Shown here piece by piece: positions 4,917 through 39,261 of a DNA stretch of 64,000 bases; position 1 is the first letter of the stretch, and every line of letters starts with the position of its first letter. The DNA is taken from NCBI GenBank assembly GCA_035309485.1, contig DATGFC010000041.1:5426-69425 (forward strand), given 5' to 3'. Position numbers and translations under genes: made by a program. Below the pieces are notes generated by a model that was given only the letters and a program-made list of their open reading frames with translations, was not told the DNA's origin and made no database searches. This DNA is from Candidatus Sulfotelmatobacter sp. GTDB taxonomy: Bacteria; Acidobacteriota; Terriglobia; Terriglobales; Acidobacteriaceae.

Positions 4917-6293
4917 ATGGAAAAGCCGCAGCGCAGCCTCTCTCAGTTGCTCAACATGAGCTTCGGATTCCTCGGCATTCAGTTCGGCTGGGGGCTCCAG
5001 ATGGCCAACATGAGCCCCATCTATGAATACCTGGGCGCGCGGGCAGATCAGCTTGCGTATTTGTGGCTGGCAGCGCCGATCACCGGCCTGCTCGTGCAGC
5101 CAATTATCGGCCATGCCAGCGATCGTACTTGGGGACCGCTTGGCCGCCGGCGGCCCTATTTCCTGACCGGCGCAGTTCTGAGTTCGGCAGCGTTGATCCT
5201 GATGCCGCGCAGCTCGACGCTTTGGATGGCTGCCGGACTGCTCTGGATCCTCGACGCTTCCATCAACATCAGCATGGAGCCCTTCCGCGCATTCGTGGCG
5301 GACTTACTGCCGGAATCGCAGCGCACACGCGGATTCGTCATGCAGAGTTTCTTTATTGGCCTGGGAGCCGTTTTCGCTTCGGCCATGCCTTACATCCTGA
5401 CGCACTGGTTCTCCATAAGCGATACCGCCGGATCCGCGTCGGCAATTCCTTACACCGTGCGCCTGTCTTTCTACCTGGGCGCGGCGGTTTTCTTCGTGGC
5501 GGTGCTTTACACCATTCTTACGACGAAGGAATATCCGCCGGACGATTTAGCCGAGTTCGAACGGCGGAAGAAAGACCGGCACGGGCTCGGCAGCAACGTC
5601 TCCGACATTCTCACAGCCATTCGCACCATGCCCCGCACCATGCGCCACCTTGCGCCCGTGCAGTTCTGCACCTGGCTGGGACTGTTCTGCATGTGGCTGT
5701 TCTTCGGAGTCGCCGTGGCCCGCAGCGTTTTTGGGGCGACGTCGCCACAGTCTCCGGGATATACCGAAGGCGTGAAGTGGGGCGGCATTTGCTTCGCCGT
5801 CTACTCGGCGGTGACGTTTCTGTTCGCCATGGTGCTGCCGCGAATCGCCGATGCGCTGGGGCGCAAAGCTACCCATTCCTTGTGCCTGGCCTGTGGTGGA
5901 GTGGGGCTACTTTCAGTGGCGGTCATTCACAATCCATGGGTGCTGTTTGGCCCCATGATTGGAGTCGGCATTGCCTGGGCGAGCATTCTTTCCATGCCCT
6001 ATGCCGTGCTGGTTGGCGCGTTGCCGCCGGACCGTTTTGGGGTCTACATGGGAATTTTTAACGCCTTCATCGTGATCCCCGAAATCATTGCGGGCGCCTT
6101 CTTCAACCGTGTGGTGAGCTTCCTGATTCCGCGCTTGCCCGCCACACTGGATGTGAGGCTTGCGGTCGTAATGATTGGCGGCGGAGCACTGTTACTGGCG
6201 GCTTTGCTAATGCTCAGAGTAGAAGAGAGCAGCCAGCCGGAACCTGCGGCTCGAGAGGTAGTCGCGCGCGATATAGTGGTCGCGAAAGCTTGA
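4917..6293 (+). CDS. MFS sugar transporter (GPH/SLC45-like, probable maltose/maltodextrin or sucrose symporter)
   Basis: Polytopic membrane protein with [28 protein letters not shown] and the GRRRPYF motif. It lies between malQ and a GH13 gene. The ATG at 4917 is the first plausible start. Confidence 0.8.
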
Positions 6294-13728: not shown

Positions 13729-15027
13729 CTAGTCGTTGATCGCCTGATACGCCAGTTCATTCACTTGCCGGTCCAGCGTCAAGTCGCCCGTGGGATGCAG
13801 TTGCGCCATGAATACGACAATCATCTGTTCCTTGGGATCGATGGTGAATCCGGTATAAAAGAATCCGCCCCAACTGTACTCGCCCACCGAACCCAACTCG
13901 CCGAGCGGACCTTTGACGCCTTCGATTCCAAAGCCCAGCCCAAATCCCTGGTCCGGACCGATTTTTCCCAGTTGATCGTGGGTCATCAACTCCACGGTTT
14001 TTCGGCTTAACAGGCGCGTGTTCCCGACTCGGCCTTCGTCGAGCATCATCTGGCAAAAGCGCGCATAATCCATCGCCGTGGAAACCAGTCCACCCCCGCC
14101 AGAGAAAAGTTTCTTCGGTCCCTTCGATGGATAATCCGCCGAATATACGAATGTTCCTTCACGGATCGGGGTATCCGGAAATCGGTTCAACCCTTTGTCT
14201 GGATAGTAGGTGTATGCGGTGGCCAGACGGCCGAGTTTATTGTCCGGAGGAAAGAAGTAGGTATCGTTCATGCCTAGCGGCTCGAAGATTCGCGTGCGGA
14301 AAAATTCGTCCAAGGGTTTGCCGGACACGACCTCGACCAAGCGGCCCAGCACGTCCACACCCAGGCTGTATTCAAACCGATCTCCGGGATTGAATAACAA
14401 TGGCAGTCCCGCAAGCTGTTTCACGCTGTCGCCAATGGTGCCGTCGTATGGCAGCAGACCGCTCGCGATGTTGGCCTTTTCATACATCGGCCCGAGATCG
14501 GCATTCCAGTTGTAGGTCAATCCCGATGTATGCCGCAGCAGGTCGCGAATCGTAATTTCCTTCGTCGCCGGAATCGTATACGGCTCGCCCGAGGCGGGTT
14601 TGACCAGCACCTTCGGATTCTTGAACTCCGGCAGATATTTGGAGACCGGATCATCCAGCAAAAACTTGCCTTCCTCGTACAGCATCATCACCGCTACGCT
14701 GGTGATGGGCTTGCTCATCGAGCAGATCCGGAACATGGCATCGGCCGGCATGGGCTTGCCGGACTCACGGTCCATCATGCCCTGAGCCTTGAACCAGGCC
14801 ACGTGCCCACGGCGGACCACCAGCGTGACTGTGCCCGCAATACGCTTGTCATCTATGTCGTGCTGCACGACAGTGGCAATGCGGTCGAGGCGTTCCGACG
14901 ATAACCCAACCGACTCAGGCTTGGCGGGCGTTAGCTCCTGGGCCCAAGCACAGGCATTCAGCAGAAGAACGCCGAACAGAACCGGAACGAACTTCCGGCT
15001 CTGCCCGGCTAGATCGGTAGCACGCAT
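13729..15027 (-). CDS. Serine hydrolase, beta-lactamase (class C)/esterase family, secreted
   Basis: Signal peptide, then the S-x-x-K motif in CSMSKPITSVAV. Length and C-terminal region are typical of the beta-lactamase-related family. Confidence 0.85.
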   Translation of the reverse strand: MRATDLAGQSRKFVPVLFGVLLLNACAWAQELTPAKPESVGLSSERLDRIATVVQHDIDDKRIAGTVTLVVRRGHVAWFKAQGMMDRESGKPMPADAMFRICSMSKPITSVAVMMLYEEGKFLLDDPVSKYLPEFKNPKVLVKPASGEPYTIPATKEITIRDLLRHTSGLTYNWNADLGPMYEKANIASGLLPYDGTIGDSVKQLAGLPLLFNPGDRFEYSLGVDVLGRLVEVVSGKPLDEFFRTRIFEPLGMNDTYFFPPDNKLGRLATAYTYYPDKGLNRFPDTPIREGTFVYSADYPSKGPKKLFSGGGGLVSTAMDYARFCQMMLDEGRVGNTRLLSRKTVELMTHDQLGKIGPDQGFGLGFGIEGVKGPLGELGSVGEYSWGGFFYTGFTIDPKEQMIVVFMAQLHPTGDLTLDRQVNELAYQAIND

Positions 15028-17239: not shown

Positions 17240-17623
17240 TTACTTCGACGCTGCCTCTGCTCCAATTTTCTCGATCACAATTGCTGTCGACCCGCCGCGC
17301 ACATACGTCTTGCCGCTGGCCGTGACGCGCAGTCCGGCAAAGGGCATTAGCTTTTCGTTCTGACCGGCCGAGGGAGTGGTGTCGGCGATCGGCCAGTAGA
17401 TCGTGCCATTGTCCGCCAGAATGACTAGCGGCGATCCCGCCCTGGCACACGCCTCAGCGCACTGCGCGCTGATGGGTTTTTTCAACCCTTTGGTGAAGGC
17501 GCAGGCCGAATCCAGAACGTATCCATTTACGGAGACGGACTTGCCATCATCGCTTCCCGCGGCTAGCAAAGCCACGAATACAACGCCAGCCGTCAACAGC
17601 CAAGCAGGCTTCTGAATCCTCAT
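17240..17623 (-). CDS. Hypothetical secreted protein (127 aa)
   Basis: MRIQKPAWLLTAGVVFVALLAAG signal-like N-terminus, with the start chosen at 17623. It is divergent from the BlaI-type regulator. I recognised no family. Confidence 0.5.
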   Translation of the reverse strand: MRIQKPAWLLTAGVVFVALLAAGSDDGKSVSVNGYVLDSACAFTKGLKKPISAQCAEACARAGSPLVILADNGTIYWPIADTTPSAGQNEKLMPFAGLRVTASGKTYVRGGSTAIVIEKIGAEAASK

Positions 17624-17733: not shown

Positions 17734-17788
17734 CTACGAAGAATTTCGTTGACACTACGAATACCTTCGTAGTATGGTGCCTTTCATG
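17734..17788 (+). promoter_or_regulatory. Candidate promoter with two TACGAA-N4-TTCGTA-type operator palindromes for the BlaI-family repressor
   Basis: The layout is TTGACA (17749..17754), an 18-nt spacer, TATGGT (17773..17778), 7 nt, then the ATG at 17786. A perfect 20-bp palindrome ACTACGAATACCTTCGTAGT (17754..17773) fills the spacer. A second palindrome, ACGAAgaatTTCGT, lies at 17736..17749. Confidence 0.6.
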
Positions 17789-18172
17789 ACACGCTCACCG
17801 CAAAAACCTACGGCGTCGGAGCTGGAGATTCTCCGCGTTCTCTGGACGCGTGGCCCCTCCACCGTGCGCGAGGTTCATAAAGCGCTCAGCGAGAAAAAGT
17901 CCCTGGGCTACACCACTGTTTTGAAGCTGCTGCAAATTATGACGACAAAAGGCACGGTGCGGCGAAACGAAACCCAGAGGGCCCACGTCTATGAAGCATG
18001 CCTTCCGGCCGAGCAGACCAAGCGGCAGATTGCGGGGGATATGTTGCAGCGCGTCTTTGAAGGGTCGGCAAGCCAGTTGATGATGCACGCGCTCGCCGGG
18101 CGTAAAGCTTCGCAGGAAGAAATTGAAGAACTCCGCCAAATGCTGGATGAGTATGAAAGGAGCCGGCGATGA
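17786..18172 (+). CDS. BlaI/MecI/CopY family transcriptional repressor
   Basis: MTRSPQKPTASELEILRVLWTRGPSTVREVHKAL...GYTTVLKLLQIMTTKG is a winged-helix of the penicillinase-repressor family. The alternative start is 17774, as in the ORF track. Confidence 0.9.
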   Translation: MTRSPQKPTASELEILRVLWTRGPSTVREVHKALSEKKSLGYTTVLKLLQIMTTKGTVRRNETQRAHVYEACLPAEQTKRQIAGDMLQRVFEGSASQLMMHALAGRKASQEEIEELRQMLDEYERSRR

Positions 18173-20115
18173 CCGCTCTTATGACCTGGATCTCCCCAAG
18201 CACGATGCACGCTTTGGGATGGGCTCTGTTGCACTTCCTGTGGCAGGGAACAGCGCTGGCCGCGCTGGCGGCAGCCGGCATGGCAATTTGCCGCCGCACT
18301 TCGGTGCGCTACATCGTCGGAGTGGCGACGCTGGCGCTCATGCTGATCGCTCCGGTGGCGACATTTGTTTTTTATTCGGAGCAACACTCTGCAATCGTCG
18401 AAACTGCGGATTCGCCACGGCTCGCGGCAGCTACCCGGCCGGTGAAGGCCGGAGACAAGGGTTTGACGCGCATTTCAAGCGCAGCAACCTCGCTCGATGC
18501 TATCCCGTGGCTGGTCGAAGCCTGGCTTCTGGGGGTGGCCTTCTTCAGCTTGCGGTCGGCGGGCGGATTCTTCTTGTTGGAGCGCGAGCGGCGCAGGCAA
18601 TCGTCCATTGTGAGCGCAAACGTGCTCGAGATCTGCTACACGCTGCAGGACCGGCTTGGGATCGATCGCGCAATTCAGTATTGCGAATGCAAGTGGCTGC
18701 AAGCGCCCGCGGTGATTGGCTGGTTTCATCCCATCGTGTTTTTGCCGGTTTCAGCTTTGACGGGCCTGTCTGAAGATCAATTGCAGGCGGTGATCGCCCA
18801 CGAACTGGCTCATATCCGACGCTTCGACCCGTTTGTGAATGTGTTCCAGGTCGCGGTGGAGACTCTGCTTTTTTACCATCCCGCAGTCTGGTGGCTGAAC
18901 AAACGCGTTCGCGCGGAGCGCGAGCACTGCTGCGACGAGACTGCAGTTGCGGTATGCGGCAATGCCGTGGAATACGCGCGCGCGCTGACGCTGATGGAAG
19001 AATGGCGCAGCGCGCCTGTGTTCGCGATGGCGGCCAATCGGGGACCTCTCACAGAACGCATCGTCCGCGTGCTTGGACTCAAGACGCTGGGTACCGGAAT
19101 CCGCAGCGTCGGCCTGACGGGAAGTCTACTGTGCCTGACCGCAGCGCTGGCTGCGGGAAATGCCCTGTTGGGTATGACGCACCCACGTCTGGCCCGGGCC
19201 AGTTCCCTCATGCAAGCCACGCCCAAGGCGGAGAACACACAGGAGCCAGTCGCAAAGCCCGCAATCACCGCGAAGCCTTCCGCTGCGCAGACTGCTAGTC
19301 CAGCGCCAAGCGCCAACCCGGCGCCCTCAGGCTCTTCTTACATCGAGGCGATGAAAGCTGCCGGACTGGCGAACCCGAGCATCGACGAGTTGATCGCTCT
19401 GAAGACTCAGGGCGTCACGCCGGAGTATGTGCGCGAGATGCACGATCTGGGATTGCATCCGGAGGCCGATGGACTGGTGGGACTCAAGGTCCAGGGCGTC
19501 ACGCCGGAATACATCAAGGGACTGCGCGCTCTTGGCTTCAACCCTGATGAGGATCAGATCATAGGCATGAAGGTGCAAGGCGTCACCGCGGATTACGTGA
19601 AGGGACTGAAAGAGGTCGGCATCCAGGCTGATGCCGATGACATTGTAGGTCTGAAGGTACAGGGAGTGACTCCCGAATACGTACGTGAAATGCGCGCTGC
19701 CGGGCTGAAGGTTGGCGCAGACGATGTGGTCGGCCTAAAGGTGCAGGGCGTGACTCCGGCTTACGTCCAAGGCCTGCGGGCGCAGGGTTTCGAAGTGAAC
19801 TCAGACGACGTGGTAGGAATGAAAGTGCAAGGCGTCACGCCGGAATACATTCGCGATATTCGCGCGCTGGGCTTCCATCCCAGTGCGGACGAGATTGTTG
19901 GCATGAAAGTACAAGGCGTGACTCCGGGGTTCATCAAAGCGCTGCAAGCGGCGGGATTTAAGCCGAGCATCGACGACATCGTCGGAGCGAAGGTGCAGGG
20001 AATCACTCCGGAATTCATCGAGGAAGCACGCAAGCACGGCTTCCAGAATTTGACCATTGAAAAGCTGATCGAACTGAAACACCTTTGGATCCTGGAGAAT
20101 AAAGCCGAACTGTAG
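18169..20115 (+). CDS. BlaR1/MecR1-type M56 peptidase signal transducer with a C-terminal 28-aa tandem-repeat domain
   Basis: N-terminal transmembrane helices, the HELAHIRRFD zinc-protease motif and a 4-nt overlap with the repressor gene. The C-terminal 260 aa are tandem repeats rather than a penicillin-binding domain. Confidence 0.88.
   Translation: MTALMTWISPSTMHALGWALLHFLWQGTALAALAAAGMAICRRTSVRYIVGVATLALMLIAPVATFVFYSEQHSAIVETADSPRLAAATRPVKAGDKGLTRISSAATSLDAIPWLVEAWLLGVAFFSLRSAGGFFLLERERRRQSSIVSANVLEICYTLQDRLGIDRAIQYCECKWLQAPAVIGWFHPIVFLPVSALTGLSEDQLQAVIAHELAHIRRFDPFVNVFQVAVETLLFYHPAVWWLNKRVRAEREHCCDETAVAVCGNAVEYARALTLMEEWRSAPVFAMAANRGPLTERIVRVLGLKTLGTGIRSVGLTGSLLCLTAALAAGNALLGMTHPRLARASSLMQATPKAENTQEPVAKPAITAKPSAAQTASPAPSANPAPSGSSYIEAMKAAGLANPSIDELIALKTQGVTPEYVREMHDLGLHPEADGLVGLKVQGVTPEYIKGLRALGFNPDEDQIIGMKVQGVTADYVKGLKEVGIQADADDIVGLKVQGVTPEYVREMRAAGLKVGADDVVGLKVQGVTPAYVQGLRAQGFEVNSDDVVGMKVQGVTPEYIRDIRALGFHPSADEIVGMKVQGVTPGFIKALQAAGFKPSIDDIVGAKVQGITPEFIEEARKHGFQNLTIEKLIELKHLWILENKAEL
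19333..20076 (+). repeat. About 9 tandem coding repeats with an 84-bp (28-aa) period
   Basis: QGVTP (or QGVTA/QGITP) recurs eight times at exactly 28-residue spacing, at aa 414, 442, 470, 498, 526, 554, 582 and 610. Confidence 0.9.
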
Positions 20116-20181
20116 CGGGCCAATCATCTGCGCGGCTGGACAGCCGAAGCGGCTGTCGCCACATGAAACAGGAGGGAATTT

Positions 20182-21141
20182 ATGAGGATGCGCCGGACTC
20201 TTGCCTATTTAGTGTTTGCCAGTTGCGTGGTGTTCTTCGTGGTCAAGAACCGCGCTGCCGAAGTGCGCAGCAATGGCGACGTCCGCAGCGGCGATTGGAC
20301 GATCAGCAAATCCGATGAGCCTGGCAAAGTCGAATTCTCGCTGATCGAGCACCATCACGGCGGAAACTAGCAGCACGAGTCGGATTGGCCGGCGAGCGCA
20401 TTTCAGGGTGTGGACTTCTCGAAGGCGGGACGGCAGGACGTGCGCTTCACGATCACCCGCGACGCAGGCAAGATCCAGTGCGAGGGATTTCTCGATAACG
20501 GTGAAGGCGCAGGGATCTTTCACTTTCAGCCCGACGCGAATTATCCGCGCGAGATGAAGTCGTTGGGCTTCGAAGTGGATGACGAGAAGCAGTTCGCCAT
20601 GGCGGTGCAGGATGTGAGCCTCGACTTCGCCAAGCAGCTGAAGAACGAGCACCTCAGCGATCTCGATGCCGACAAACTCATCGCCTTCCGCATCTTCGGC
20701 GTCGATTCAGCTTTCATCGAGGCGCTACGCGCCGAAGGGTTGAAGATTTCCGACAGCGACAAACTGGTGGCGTTCCGCATTCATGGTGTGACTCCGCAGA
20801 TGGTGCGCAGCCTGCATCAGGCGGGCTATTCGCCGGACGAAGACACGCTGGTCGCGATGCGGATTCACGGCGCAACTCCGGAGTGGATGGAACAGTTGAA
20901 GCAGCGCGGCTACGATCACGTCGACCTGGAAAAACTCATCGCGTTTCGCATTCACGGTGTCTCACCGGAATTTATCGACAAGTTGCAGAAACTGGGTTAC
21001 AAGCATCCGGATCCCGATGAGTTGATCGCCATGCGAATTCACGGCGTCACCCCGGAGTACATCAGCGACATGCGTTCACGCGGCATGCGTGATCTCAGCA
21101 TCGATCAGTTGGTGAGCATGAGAATTCACGGGATCGATTGA
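20182..21141 (+). pseudogene. Signal-anchored repeat protein (same 28-29-aa repeat family) interrupted by one in-frame TAG at 20368..20370
   Basis: ORFs 20182..20370 and 20410..21141 are in the same frame, and read-through gives ...SLIEHHHGGN*QHESDWPASAFQGVDFSKAG.... A strong ribosome-binding site (aggaggg) precedes only the ATG at 20182, and there is none before the GTG at 20410. Confidence 0.6.
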
Positions 21142-38823: not shown

Positions 38824-39261
38824 GTGATCTCTCTCCGGCCCCGGATGGCATTGATCGTACTGGCGAGCAGCGCGCTGATCGCGTGCTCGCAGAAGGCCGC
38901 ACCCCAGGCTCCCGATCCTCAAACCGTTCTGCAAGCCATTCCTGCGGCGGACTCCGCTCATTACGAACACATTCGTGACATGAAGACCTGGCGTAATCCT
39001 TACCTGATTGTGCGTACCGACGGTGTCGCCCTGCTCGATGCCGCCGACAGCGCGGAGATCATCTTGAAGCCGGACGAATTGCTGCCGGCGCTTGCCAACC
39101 TGCCGGCTTCAAATTGGCCGTATGGCCGGGTAGTCGCGGCCACCGAGACGAATACGAGAAGTTCAGAGCAGGACGCAATCACCATCCGCCGCAATAAAGG
39201 GATTGTCGGGGGGATGCTCGAAGGGGCGCACATCGCCGTAAAGTGGGTTCCGGCGTCGTGA
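38824..39261 (+). CDS. Hypothetical lipoprotein (145 aa)
   Basis: GTG start. The MISLRPRMALIVLASSALIAC lipobox-type signal is present. No family recognised. Confidence 0.55.
   Translation: MISLRPRMALIVLASSALIACSQKAAPQAPDPQTVLQAIPAADSAHYEHIRDMKTWRNPYLIVRTDGVALLDAADSAEIILKPDELLPALANLPASNWPYGRVVAATETNTRSSEQDAITIRRNKGIVGGMLEGAHIAVKWVPAS

Follow-up and report, generated by a model that had tools for sequence, protein, structure and literature searches.

BlaR1/BlaI and MecR1/MecI of Staphylococcus aureus and Bacillus licheniformis pair an M56 zinc protease with a repressor encoded next to it: the protease carries HEXXH and EXXXD motifs and four membrane segments, with its sensor domain after the last of these, and the winged-helix repressor of the Penicillinase_R family has dyad operators over its own promoter (PMC9834060, PMC3356374). 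In a 2026 survey of ~15,000 M56 proteins in InterPro, 96% were found near a BlaI-like gene, only ~6% had a penicillin-binding domain, and the largest class consisted of proteins whose C-terminal region holds no identifiable domain (PMC13492132). Here we analysed a locus of the soil acidobacterium Candidatus Sulfotelmatobacter sp. (contig DATGFC010000041.1) within a 64-kb stretch of DNA, called the window below. Three genes on its + strand encode a BlaI/MecI-type repressor, an M56 peptidase whose outer domain is an array of 28-amino-acid (aa) repeats, and a secreted protein with a beta domain and the same repeat, here called the partner. The trio shares the BlaR1/MecR1 features listed above, with the membrane segments and operators predicted from sequence. 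It departs from those systems in that a predicted 28-aa alpha-solenoid stands in place of the penicillin-binding sensor, that the gene order is blaI, blaR, partner, with a secreted paralogue of the outer domain as the third conserved gene, and that the neighbours of the operon include no conserved gene for a beta-lactamase or a PBP2a-type protein.

The repeat of the M56 protein is strictly periodic. The G of its GVTP motif stands at aa 415, 443, 471, 499, 527, 555, 583 and 611, an exact 28-aa spacing, and eight full 28-aa units (aa 406-629; 19384-20055) are preceded by a half unit, SSYIEAMKAAGLANPSI, from aa 390 (aa 389 of the protein is nucleotide (nt) 19333) and followed by another, IEKLIELKHLWILENKAEL, at aa 630-648. 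When the sequence is compared with itself at a lag of 28, residue identity reaches 0.49, whereas 2000 shuffles give 0.07 ± 0.016 (z = 25.7), and at a lag of 56 it is 0.47; the remaining lags from 20 to 59 all give 0.13 or less. The partner array holds five full units spaced 29, 28, 29 and 29 aa apart, with a degenerate unit in front and a terminal partial unit, LVSMRIHGID. Mean identity between units is 54% inside the M56 array, 46% inside the partner array and 32% across the two, and each array opens with a half unit of one shared type (Y-x-x-x-M-K-x-x-G) and closes with a first-helix half unit. An earlier note, made from the letters of the window alone, had described about nine units with a strict 28-aa period in the M56 protein and five to six of the same units in the neighbouring gene; both descriptions hold (eight full and two half units; five clear units and one degenerate, 28 or 29 aa apart), and its coordinates and quoted peptides are correct. 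As DNA, the M56 units share no more than ~60% identity and the array goes undetected by Tandem Repeats Finder; the repeat is therefore old and belongs to the protein, and does not stem from a recent DNA duplication.

The linkage of the three genes was examined in two samples. The genome sample comprised 80 loci encoding partner orthologues (63-94% identical), obtained from a single-protein scan and mostly from metagenome-assembled genomes (MAGs) of Candidatus Sulfotelmatobacter and other Terriglobia. The metagenome sample comprised 119 loci chosen solely for a match to a degenerate DNA pattern that places two GVTP motifs at a distance of 84 nt, and the partners at these loci are 27-94% identical to P0121, an intact orthologue of the window's partner (median 63%). 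Wherever upstream sequence was available in the genome sample, the M56-repeat gene preceded the partner (75/75), and BlaI was also upstream in all but one case. A partner with a beta domain lay directly downstream, on the same strand, of 88 of the 89 assessable metagenome M56-repeat genes, the sole exception being an artefact of overlapping open reading frames (ORFs), and BlaI was upstream in 78/78 assessable metagenome loci. The trio was also present around distant partners of 27-38% identity (P0100, P0037, P0102, P0104 (Longimicrobium MAG)), with M56 repeats in all four, and the GCA_009772735.1 locus, reached through its M56 protein P0036, holds the trio too. The earlier note had allowed that its proposal would fall if orthologous loci lacked a link between the repeat protein and the BlaI/BlaR pair; that link is nearly invariant. 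Each of the flanking gene families occurs in no more than about a quarter of the loci and only the trio is conserved throughout, which argues that the trio is a self-contained, conserved unit.

To survey the repeat more widely, we searched 1.84 billion representative proteins with a profile (A3) of two repeat units built from window sequences only. The profile matched 4091 clusters (50% identity) at E <= 1e-3 and 1084 at E <= 1e-30, and the repeat was found in Acidobacteriota and in at least one Gemmatimonadota MAG. The best 150 matches consisted of 98 M56 fusions, 50 free beta-domain proteins and 2 fragments, so that among them the repeat is almost wholly dedicated to two architectures, the M56 fusion and the free beta-domain protein. 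The two architectures are connected by a series of fused forms: 25 of the 98 M56 fusions also hold the beta domain, placed between the last membrane segment and the repeats, and in one of these, P0271, the entire outer domain (aa 379-755) can be aligned with the mature partner over its full length (34% identity, E = 8e-50). The partner is thus a free-standing version of an M56 outer domain. No separate partner gene was found at either of the two fused M56-beta-solenoid loci with readable downstream sequence (L091, L093); the fused proteins P0310 and P0245 stand outside this count, as their contigs are too short to show a downstream gene.

One further arrangement was seen at a metagenome locus (L085, 5001-7758, JGI 3300006169 contig), where the M56 gene is followed by three repeat proteins. 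P0037 comes first; its KAVGV-type units and its C-terminal tail, YREKN, nearly match the array of the M56 protein itself, so that it resembles a recent duplicate of the M56 outer domain. Next comes a protein whose units are of the RIHGV type, as in the partner of the window, and last a protein of 166 aa that has a signal peptide and repeats and no beta domain.

Synteny and the fused architectures together suggest a sensor/partner relationship. We tentatively favour, at somewhat less than even chances, a partner that is a soluble copy of the outer domain and serves as a co-receptor or signal-delivering component, acting with the M56 solenoid to control BlaI cleavage. This role is favoured because the beta-plus-solenoid module, as seen in the fused forms, serves M56 proteases as a sensor, because the M56 protein of the window has lost the beta domain and kept an array capable of docking, and because the partner is the conserved part of the pair. 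Under such a scheme BlaI would act at two dyad operators to repress the promoter of its own operon. The M56 protein would be a four-pass zinc protease with a cytoplasmic catalytic domain and, in the periplasm, a Pro/Ala linker and a nine-unit alpha-solenoid. The partner would be secreted as a freestanding counterpart of the outer domain, beta domain plus solenoid, that is found as a single piece in related M56 proteases. Docked on the M56 solenoid, the partner would perceive or modulate a signal; on a non-beta-lactam signal the M56 protease would cleave BlaI, and the operon would be de-repressed. Both the contact between partner and M56 solenoid and the direction of its effect are what we infer.

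The protease itself is a member of the M56 family. Peptidase_M56 (PF05569) spans aa 55-299 (E = 8.7e-31), and the catalytic motifs are HELAH at aa 211, within HELAHIRRFD, and EHCCD at aa 252, matching HEXXH and EXXXD. The repressor ORF matches Penicillinase_R (PF03965, E = 1.2e-30), in agreement with the earlier note, which had recognised an M56 peptidase with HELAHIRRFD beside a BlaI-type repressor; the NCBIfam BlaI and CopY models score under their cut-offs on it. Hydropathy predicts four membrane segments in the M56 protein (aa 23-41, 49-67, 119-137 and 316-336). Loops facing the protease are rich in K and R, a distribution that fits a four-pass topology. By hydropathy and homology to BlaR1, the C-terminal domain would be extracytoplasmic and the catalytic domain cytoplasmic. 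The Pro/Ala linker, poorly conserved at 42% median identity (10 loci where alignable), sits where the fused homologues hold the beta domain.

Neither PF00905 nor any other penicillin-binding match was found in the M56 protein with Pfam. NCBIfam blaR1_generic reached 78.7 bits against a 400-bit cut-off, aligned over aa 114-263 only, and sensor_BlaR1 and sensor_MecR1 were far under their 1200-bit cut-offs. Because the defining penicillin-binding sensor domain is absent, the protein falls outside BlaR1 in the strict sense and inside the broad BlaIR family. The proposal that the repeat replaces the sensor domain holds in that no penicillin-binding domain is present, though the case is less exceptional than it might seem: such a replacement is normal for the M56 family, only ~6% of which carry that domain.

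AlphaFold2, run on the M56 C-terminus with 31 aligned homologues, gave a mean predicted local distance difference test (pLDDT) of 93.4 and a predicted template modelling score (pTM) of 0.80, with 18 helices in the array, nearly all of nine residues and two per unit. The outer domain is thus confidently predicted to be an alpha-solenoid of two-helix hairpins, which bears out the solenoid-like character that had been proposed for it. Foldseek against the Protein Data Bank (PDB) returned a single match to this model under E = 0.001, the designed nanocage 8v2d (template modelling (TM) score 0.27); natural proteins (TAL-effector, BurrH, mTERF) followed at E = 0.077 or worse with TM-scores <= 0.30. 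Nucleic-acid binding is unlikely despite the TALE-like shape, since both outer domains are acidic (isoelectric point (pI) ~5) and predicted to be extracytoplasmic. A His-rich loop (EHHHGG), which might have hinted at metal binding, is restricted to the Sulfotelmatobacter clade.

The earlier note could not assign the repeat to any named family, and our searches agree; a match to a characterised domain, the other finding by which the note's proposal would have fallen, did not emerge. Apart from LytB, discussed below, no Pfam or NCBIfam repeat family reached threshold on the window arrays or on 22 partner homologues; sub-threshold Pfam matches were to short helical motifs only (HHH_5, at 22-24 bits against 27, SAM_GIDA_C and Glycos_trans_3N). 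Sequence searches of the PDB, with the array by phmmer and with a two-unit profile, gave nothing credible, and in the literature we found nothing on the 28-aa repeat or on M56/BlaR1 systems in Acidobacteria. Three candidate names were rejected. PF25859 ('MT0599') is a faint match in the precomputed lists of many homologues and is absent from the literature. LytB/IspH (PF02401) scores 31.4 bits on the partner (window 20410-21138) against a cut-off of 24.5, yet we regard it as a false positive because the match is confined to 38-aa stretches inside the repeat units, at model positions 42-80 of 267; IspH is a three-domain fold of ~270 aa, and the partner is instead predicted to be a secreted protein of a beta domain and a solenoid. 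The NCBI name 'DUF732 domain-containing protein', given to one homologue, likewise reflects a short partial match within repeat units. The LytB label is precomputed on most partner homologues (P0121-P0240), and the LytB and DUF732 labels look like false annotation spreading through the databases.

Intact partner orthologues are 313-319 aa long, the 319-aa ones being 98% and 95% identical to the window's partner. The AlphaFold2 model of one of them (P0121; pLDDT 88.8) shows a signal helix, six beta strands and then a solenoid, and Foldseek found no match to it in the PDB under E = 0.001, with all TM-scores low. The beta domain (~85 aa) is conserved even in distant homologues: seven residues, of which one is Trp and six are Gly, never vary, and the consensus shows a GxGxG motif; a profile search with this domain alone returned only short, frame-shifted or truncated fragments.

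In the window, the partner frame is interrupted by an in-frame TAG, a feature that the earlier note had overlooked together with the signal peptide and the beta domain, while being right about the repeats. The codon concerned encodes serine in all intact orthologues examined (TCG in 22, TCC in 8, TCA in 3, TCT in 1). A TAG at the identical codon (6169-6171) was found in L063, a divergent MAG with 76% identity, where the flanking codons differ. Two contigs have a record of the truncated 62-aa product, and in the L063 cluster a 59-aa product (P0454) terminates three codons further on, either by a stop codon or because the contig ends. By a rough estimate, made post hoc, two independent random nonsense events would hit one codon with a chance of ~1%. 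A suppressor tRNA for TAG was sought in the 64-kb window, which contains no tRNA gene. The recurrent TAG could be a nonsense hotspot, a switch or a coincidence, and it is possible that the recurrent TCG-to-TAG change acts as a population-level on/off switch of the module. Because of this nonsense codon, the module in this strain probably runs without a full-length partner. Separately, copies of the M56 and partner genes in long-read MAGs are often frameshifted (L006, L018, L026, L033, L036, L037, L043, L078), and dozens of 100-167-aa N-terminal partner fragments (P0385-P0450) are present in the protein database; these are probably mostly assembly errors, and they complicate the counting of real pseudogenes.

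The two outer domains differ in how strongly they are constrained. Across 64 orthologous loci, the median identity to the window proteins was 87.5% for BlaI, 70% for the membrane and protease part of M56, 57.5% for the M56 repeat array, 81% for the partner beta domain and 85% for the partner repeats. Per-unit conservation ranged from 0.65 to 0.79 in the M56 array and from 0.80 to 0.92 in the partner array. The number of detectable units in M56 was 4-10 in nearly all of 133 complete pairs, with a mode of 8, and the partner had five units in 108 of these pairs. The partner is therefore the constrained component and the M56 solenoid the plastic one, a pattern that would fit a conserved perceiving component together with a looser docking or spacer array. 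It could also be read as a solenoid that is simply a stalk or spacer and no ligand binder, in which the Pro/Ala linker and a varying count of units project a conserved distal cap through the periplasm towards the cell wall or outer membrane so that the module reports envelope geometry or integrity, with the partner as an envelope-associated anchor. The variable M56 unit number next to a fixed partner array would suit a stalk, as would the poorly conserved linker and the slightly higher conservation of the first and last M56 units (0.77-0.79) than of the middle ones (0.65-0.75). That gradient is weak, however, and no lipobox, cell-wall-binding or outer-membrane domain was detected, so that we regard this entirely speculative reading as highly unlikely.

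Upstream of blaI, two operator-like dyads overlap a sigma-70-like promoter. The first is kept in 75/76 related loci, almost always as TACGAAGATTTTCGTT, and the second in 76/76, with invariant arms around a freely varying 4-nt spacer; fixed arms around a varying spacer are a clear footprint of selection. The dyads are also kept in lineages whose partner is only ~30% identical, and in 1.85 Mb of related loci all 148 perfect dyad sites lie at blaI promoters, distant lineages included. A third operator-like site in the window, at 38962, was discarded, being within an ORF and within chance expectation. Judged from these sites, BlaI probably represses its own operon through the two dyads. The first ATG at which blaI could start (17774) lies partly within the -10 hexamer, and JGI annotates the gene from 17786; the blaI mRNA may therefore be leaderless. 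The stop codon of blaI overlaps the M56 start by 4 nt (ATGA), the partner begins 66 nt after the M56 stop, with an AGGAGG in between, and no convincing terminator was found in that gap; for these reasons the simplest reading is that the three genes share one self-regulated transcript.

This arrangement would also suit a partner that stands at the output end of the system: a protein secreted for protection or scavenging, whose production BlaI controls and whose target is the envelope or environmental molecule detected by the sensor. The partner is the only conserved non-regulatory gene in the module and its slowest-evolving extracytoplasmic part, the operator occurs only at the blaI promoter within the window and the flanks of related loci, partner-like proteins exist without an M56 gene, and some loci hold two or three partner paralogues. 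Lineages with a fused beta-solenoid and no partner gene (2/2 loci) would, however, be left without a local output. Many regulatory modules, moreover, have targets elsewhere in the genome, and our operator scans covered the window and the related loci. We consider a partner of this kind unlikely.

About equally improbable, in our estimate, is a partner that works as a feedback inhibitor or decoy, which would build up after induction, sequester the ligand by means of the binding repeat that it shares with the sensor, or cap the M56 solenoid, and so reset the switch, as CpxP does on CpxA. Such an inhibitor might look like the partner, a paralogue of the sensor's outer domain that lies behind a self-regulated promoter, has a ribosome-binding site to itself and is preceded by no terminator, and natural nonsense alleles would be expected if its loss were tolerated or favoured. 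The same data fit activation equally, however; the M56 protein here is without a beta domain, so the two proteins are not equivalent binders, and the strong conservation of the partner argues for more than buffering.

Several observations weigh against the co-receptor role that we favour. The distant homologue P0048 has neither M56 nor BlaI nearby, and the same holds for the tandem paralogues P0063 and P0067, which stand beside an extracytoplasmic function (ECF) sigma factor. The absence of a partner at fused loci comes from only two loci. The split system is not a simple gene fission, and because M56 keeps its own full array the fused forms show shared function rather than contact. Unit numbers in M56 and partner are uncorrelated (r = -0.20, 133 pairs) and the M56 array evolves much faster than the partner, which together argue against a tight lengthwise heterodimer. 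Finally, the partner is broken in the window and is hence dispensable in at least some strains. With respect to the tandem pair, the contig (L086, 4058-7920, ENA HuB_forest) encodes P0063/P0067, the ECF sigma factor, which is transcribed divergently, and small membrane proteins; the beta-plus-solenoid module may also serve another type of signalling pathway.

The co-receptor reading extends to a stronger proposal, which we rate as somewhat unlikely: that the pair forms a new class of heteromeric periplasmic receptor, in which a conserved secreted paralogue docks on a variable-length M56 solenoid through repeat-to-repeat contacts and senses an envelope or soil-derived signal.

Coordinates of the features of the blaI-M56-partner locus, numbered from the first letter of the window
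Feature	Position (nt)	Strand	Basis or remark
Operator-like dyad 1, TACGAAGAATTTCGTT	17735..17750	+	upstream of blaI
Sigma-70-like promoter, TTGACA, 18 nt, TATGGT	17749..17778	+	10/12 consensus matches
Operator-like dyad 2, arms TACGAA and TTCGTA, spacer tacc (TACGAAtaccTTCGTA)	17756..17771	+	perfect palindrome between -35 and -10
BlaI/MecI-family repressor gene (132-aa ORF)	17774..18172	+	start codon 17774 or 17786
M56 peptidase gene (648 aa)	18169..20115	+	ORF list, Pfam
M56 zinc-protease module, aa 1-345	18169..19203	+	Pfam, hydropathy
Pro/Ala-rich linker, aa 346-389, last membrane segment to repeat array	19204..19335	+	read from sequence
M56 repeat array, predicted alpha-solenoid	19336..20112	+	period analysis, AlphaFold2
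Ribosome-binding site AGGAGG of partner gene	20170..20175	+	read from sequence
Partner gene reading frame	20182..21141	+	disrupted in window; translation
Partner signal peptide MRMRRTLAYLVFASCVVFFVVKNRAAE, aa 1-26	from 20182	+	orthologue P0121, AlphaFold2 signal helix
Partner six-strand beta domain, aa 35-117	20284-20532	+	AlphaFold2
In-frame TAG in partner	20368..20370	+	compared with serine codon of orthologues
Partner solenoid, aa 121-319	20542-21138	+	AlphaFold2

Two neighbours of the trio recur at a minority of loci. A gene for a PF00144 'Beta-lactamase'-family serine hydrolase lies at ~13729-15027 (-), ~3 kb upstream of blaI in the window. A PF00144 gene is also found directly downstream of the fused M56-beta-solenoid gene at L091 (3738-5432), and a related ORF occurs upstream in 12 other loci; the gene is not generally conserved beside the trio, and its presence may be a coincidence or a recurrent association. 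Divergent from the operator region, a gene at 17240-17623 (-) encodes a small secreted protein of ~127 aa with three cysteines and no Pfam family. It recurs upstream of blaI in ~1/4 to 1/3 of the orthologous genome loci and could share the blaI regulatory region.

The locus bears on what M56/BlaR-like sensors perceive in general, since ~94% of them do not sense beta-lactams (InterPro survey in PMC13492132). Our analysis overturns nothing established. It carves a large and sharply defined sub-family out of the largest M56 class, in which the C-terminal region holds no recognisable domain, and makes it testable, through partner binding, use of the operator as a reporter, and ligand screens. For database curators it offers two undescribed domains, the 28-aa repeat and the beta domain, and flags the recurrent false LytB and DUF732 annotation. 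If the co-receptor role proves true, this would be the first BlaI/BlaR-type system shown to depend on a soluble co-receptor, and would offer a way into the largest class of M56 sensors that lacks an explanation.

Among described systems, the closest in logic beyond BlaR1 and MecR1 are CenIR of Clostridioides difficile (PMC13492132), PvmSR of Pseudomonas aeruginosa (bioRxiv 10.64898/2026.08.03.742534) and the mycobacterial BlaIR, which likewise combine an M56 protein with a BlaI-type repressor and respond to a non-beta-lactam signal. The window's M56 protein falls beside these atypical BlaIR systems in the largest InterPro class, M56 with a C-terminal region without an identifiable domain. BlaIR of Mycobacterium tuberculosis and Mycobacterium abscessus and PvmSR of Pseudomonas have no outer sensor domain, and CenR has a C-terminal region without an identifiable domain; the system described here differs from all of them in a large, repetitive outer domain that is confidently predicted to fold, and in a secreted partner, always present, that carries the same repeat. 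In shape, the solenoid resembles TAL effector/BurrH repeats, mTERF and helix-hairpin-helix proteins, in which helical-hairpin units are also stacked as a superhelix, but the period here is 28 aa rather than 33-35, the TM-scores do not exceed 0.30, and the domains here are acidic and predicted to be extracytoplasmic. In CpxP-CpxA, RseB-RseA, LuxP-LuxQ and TorT-TorS, a membrane transducer depends on a periplasmic accessory protein that brings it the signal or modulates it and that is sometimes encoded in the regulated operon. The logic proposed here is alike, without kinship in sequence or fold, and we know of no case among these four in which the accessory protein and the sensor's outer domain are paralogues. 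Within the databases and literature searched, the repeat and the beta domain, the obligatory secreted paralogue, and the series of split and fused forms appear to be undescribed.

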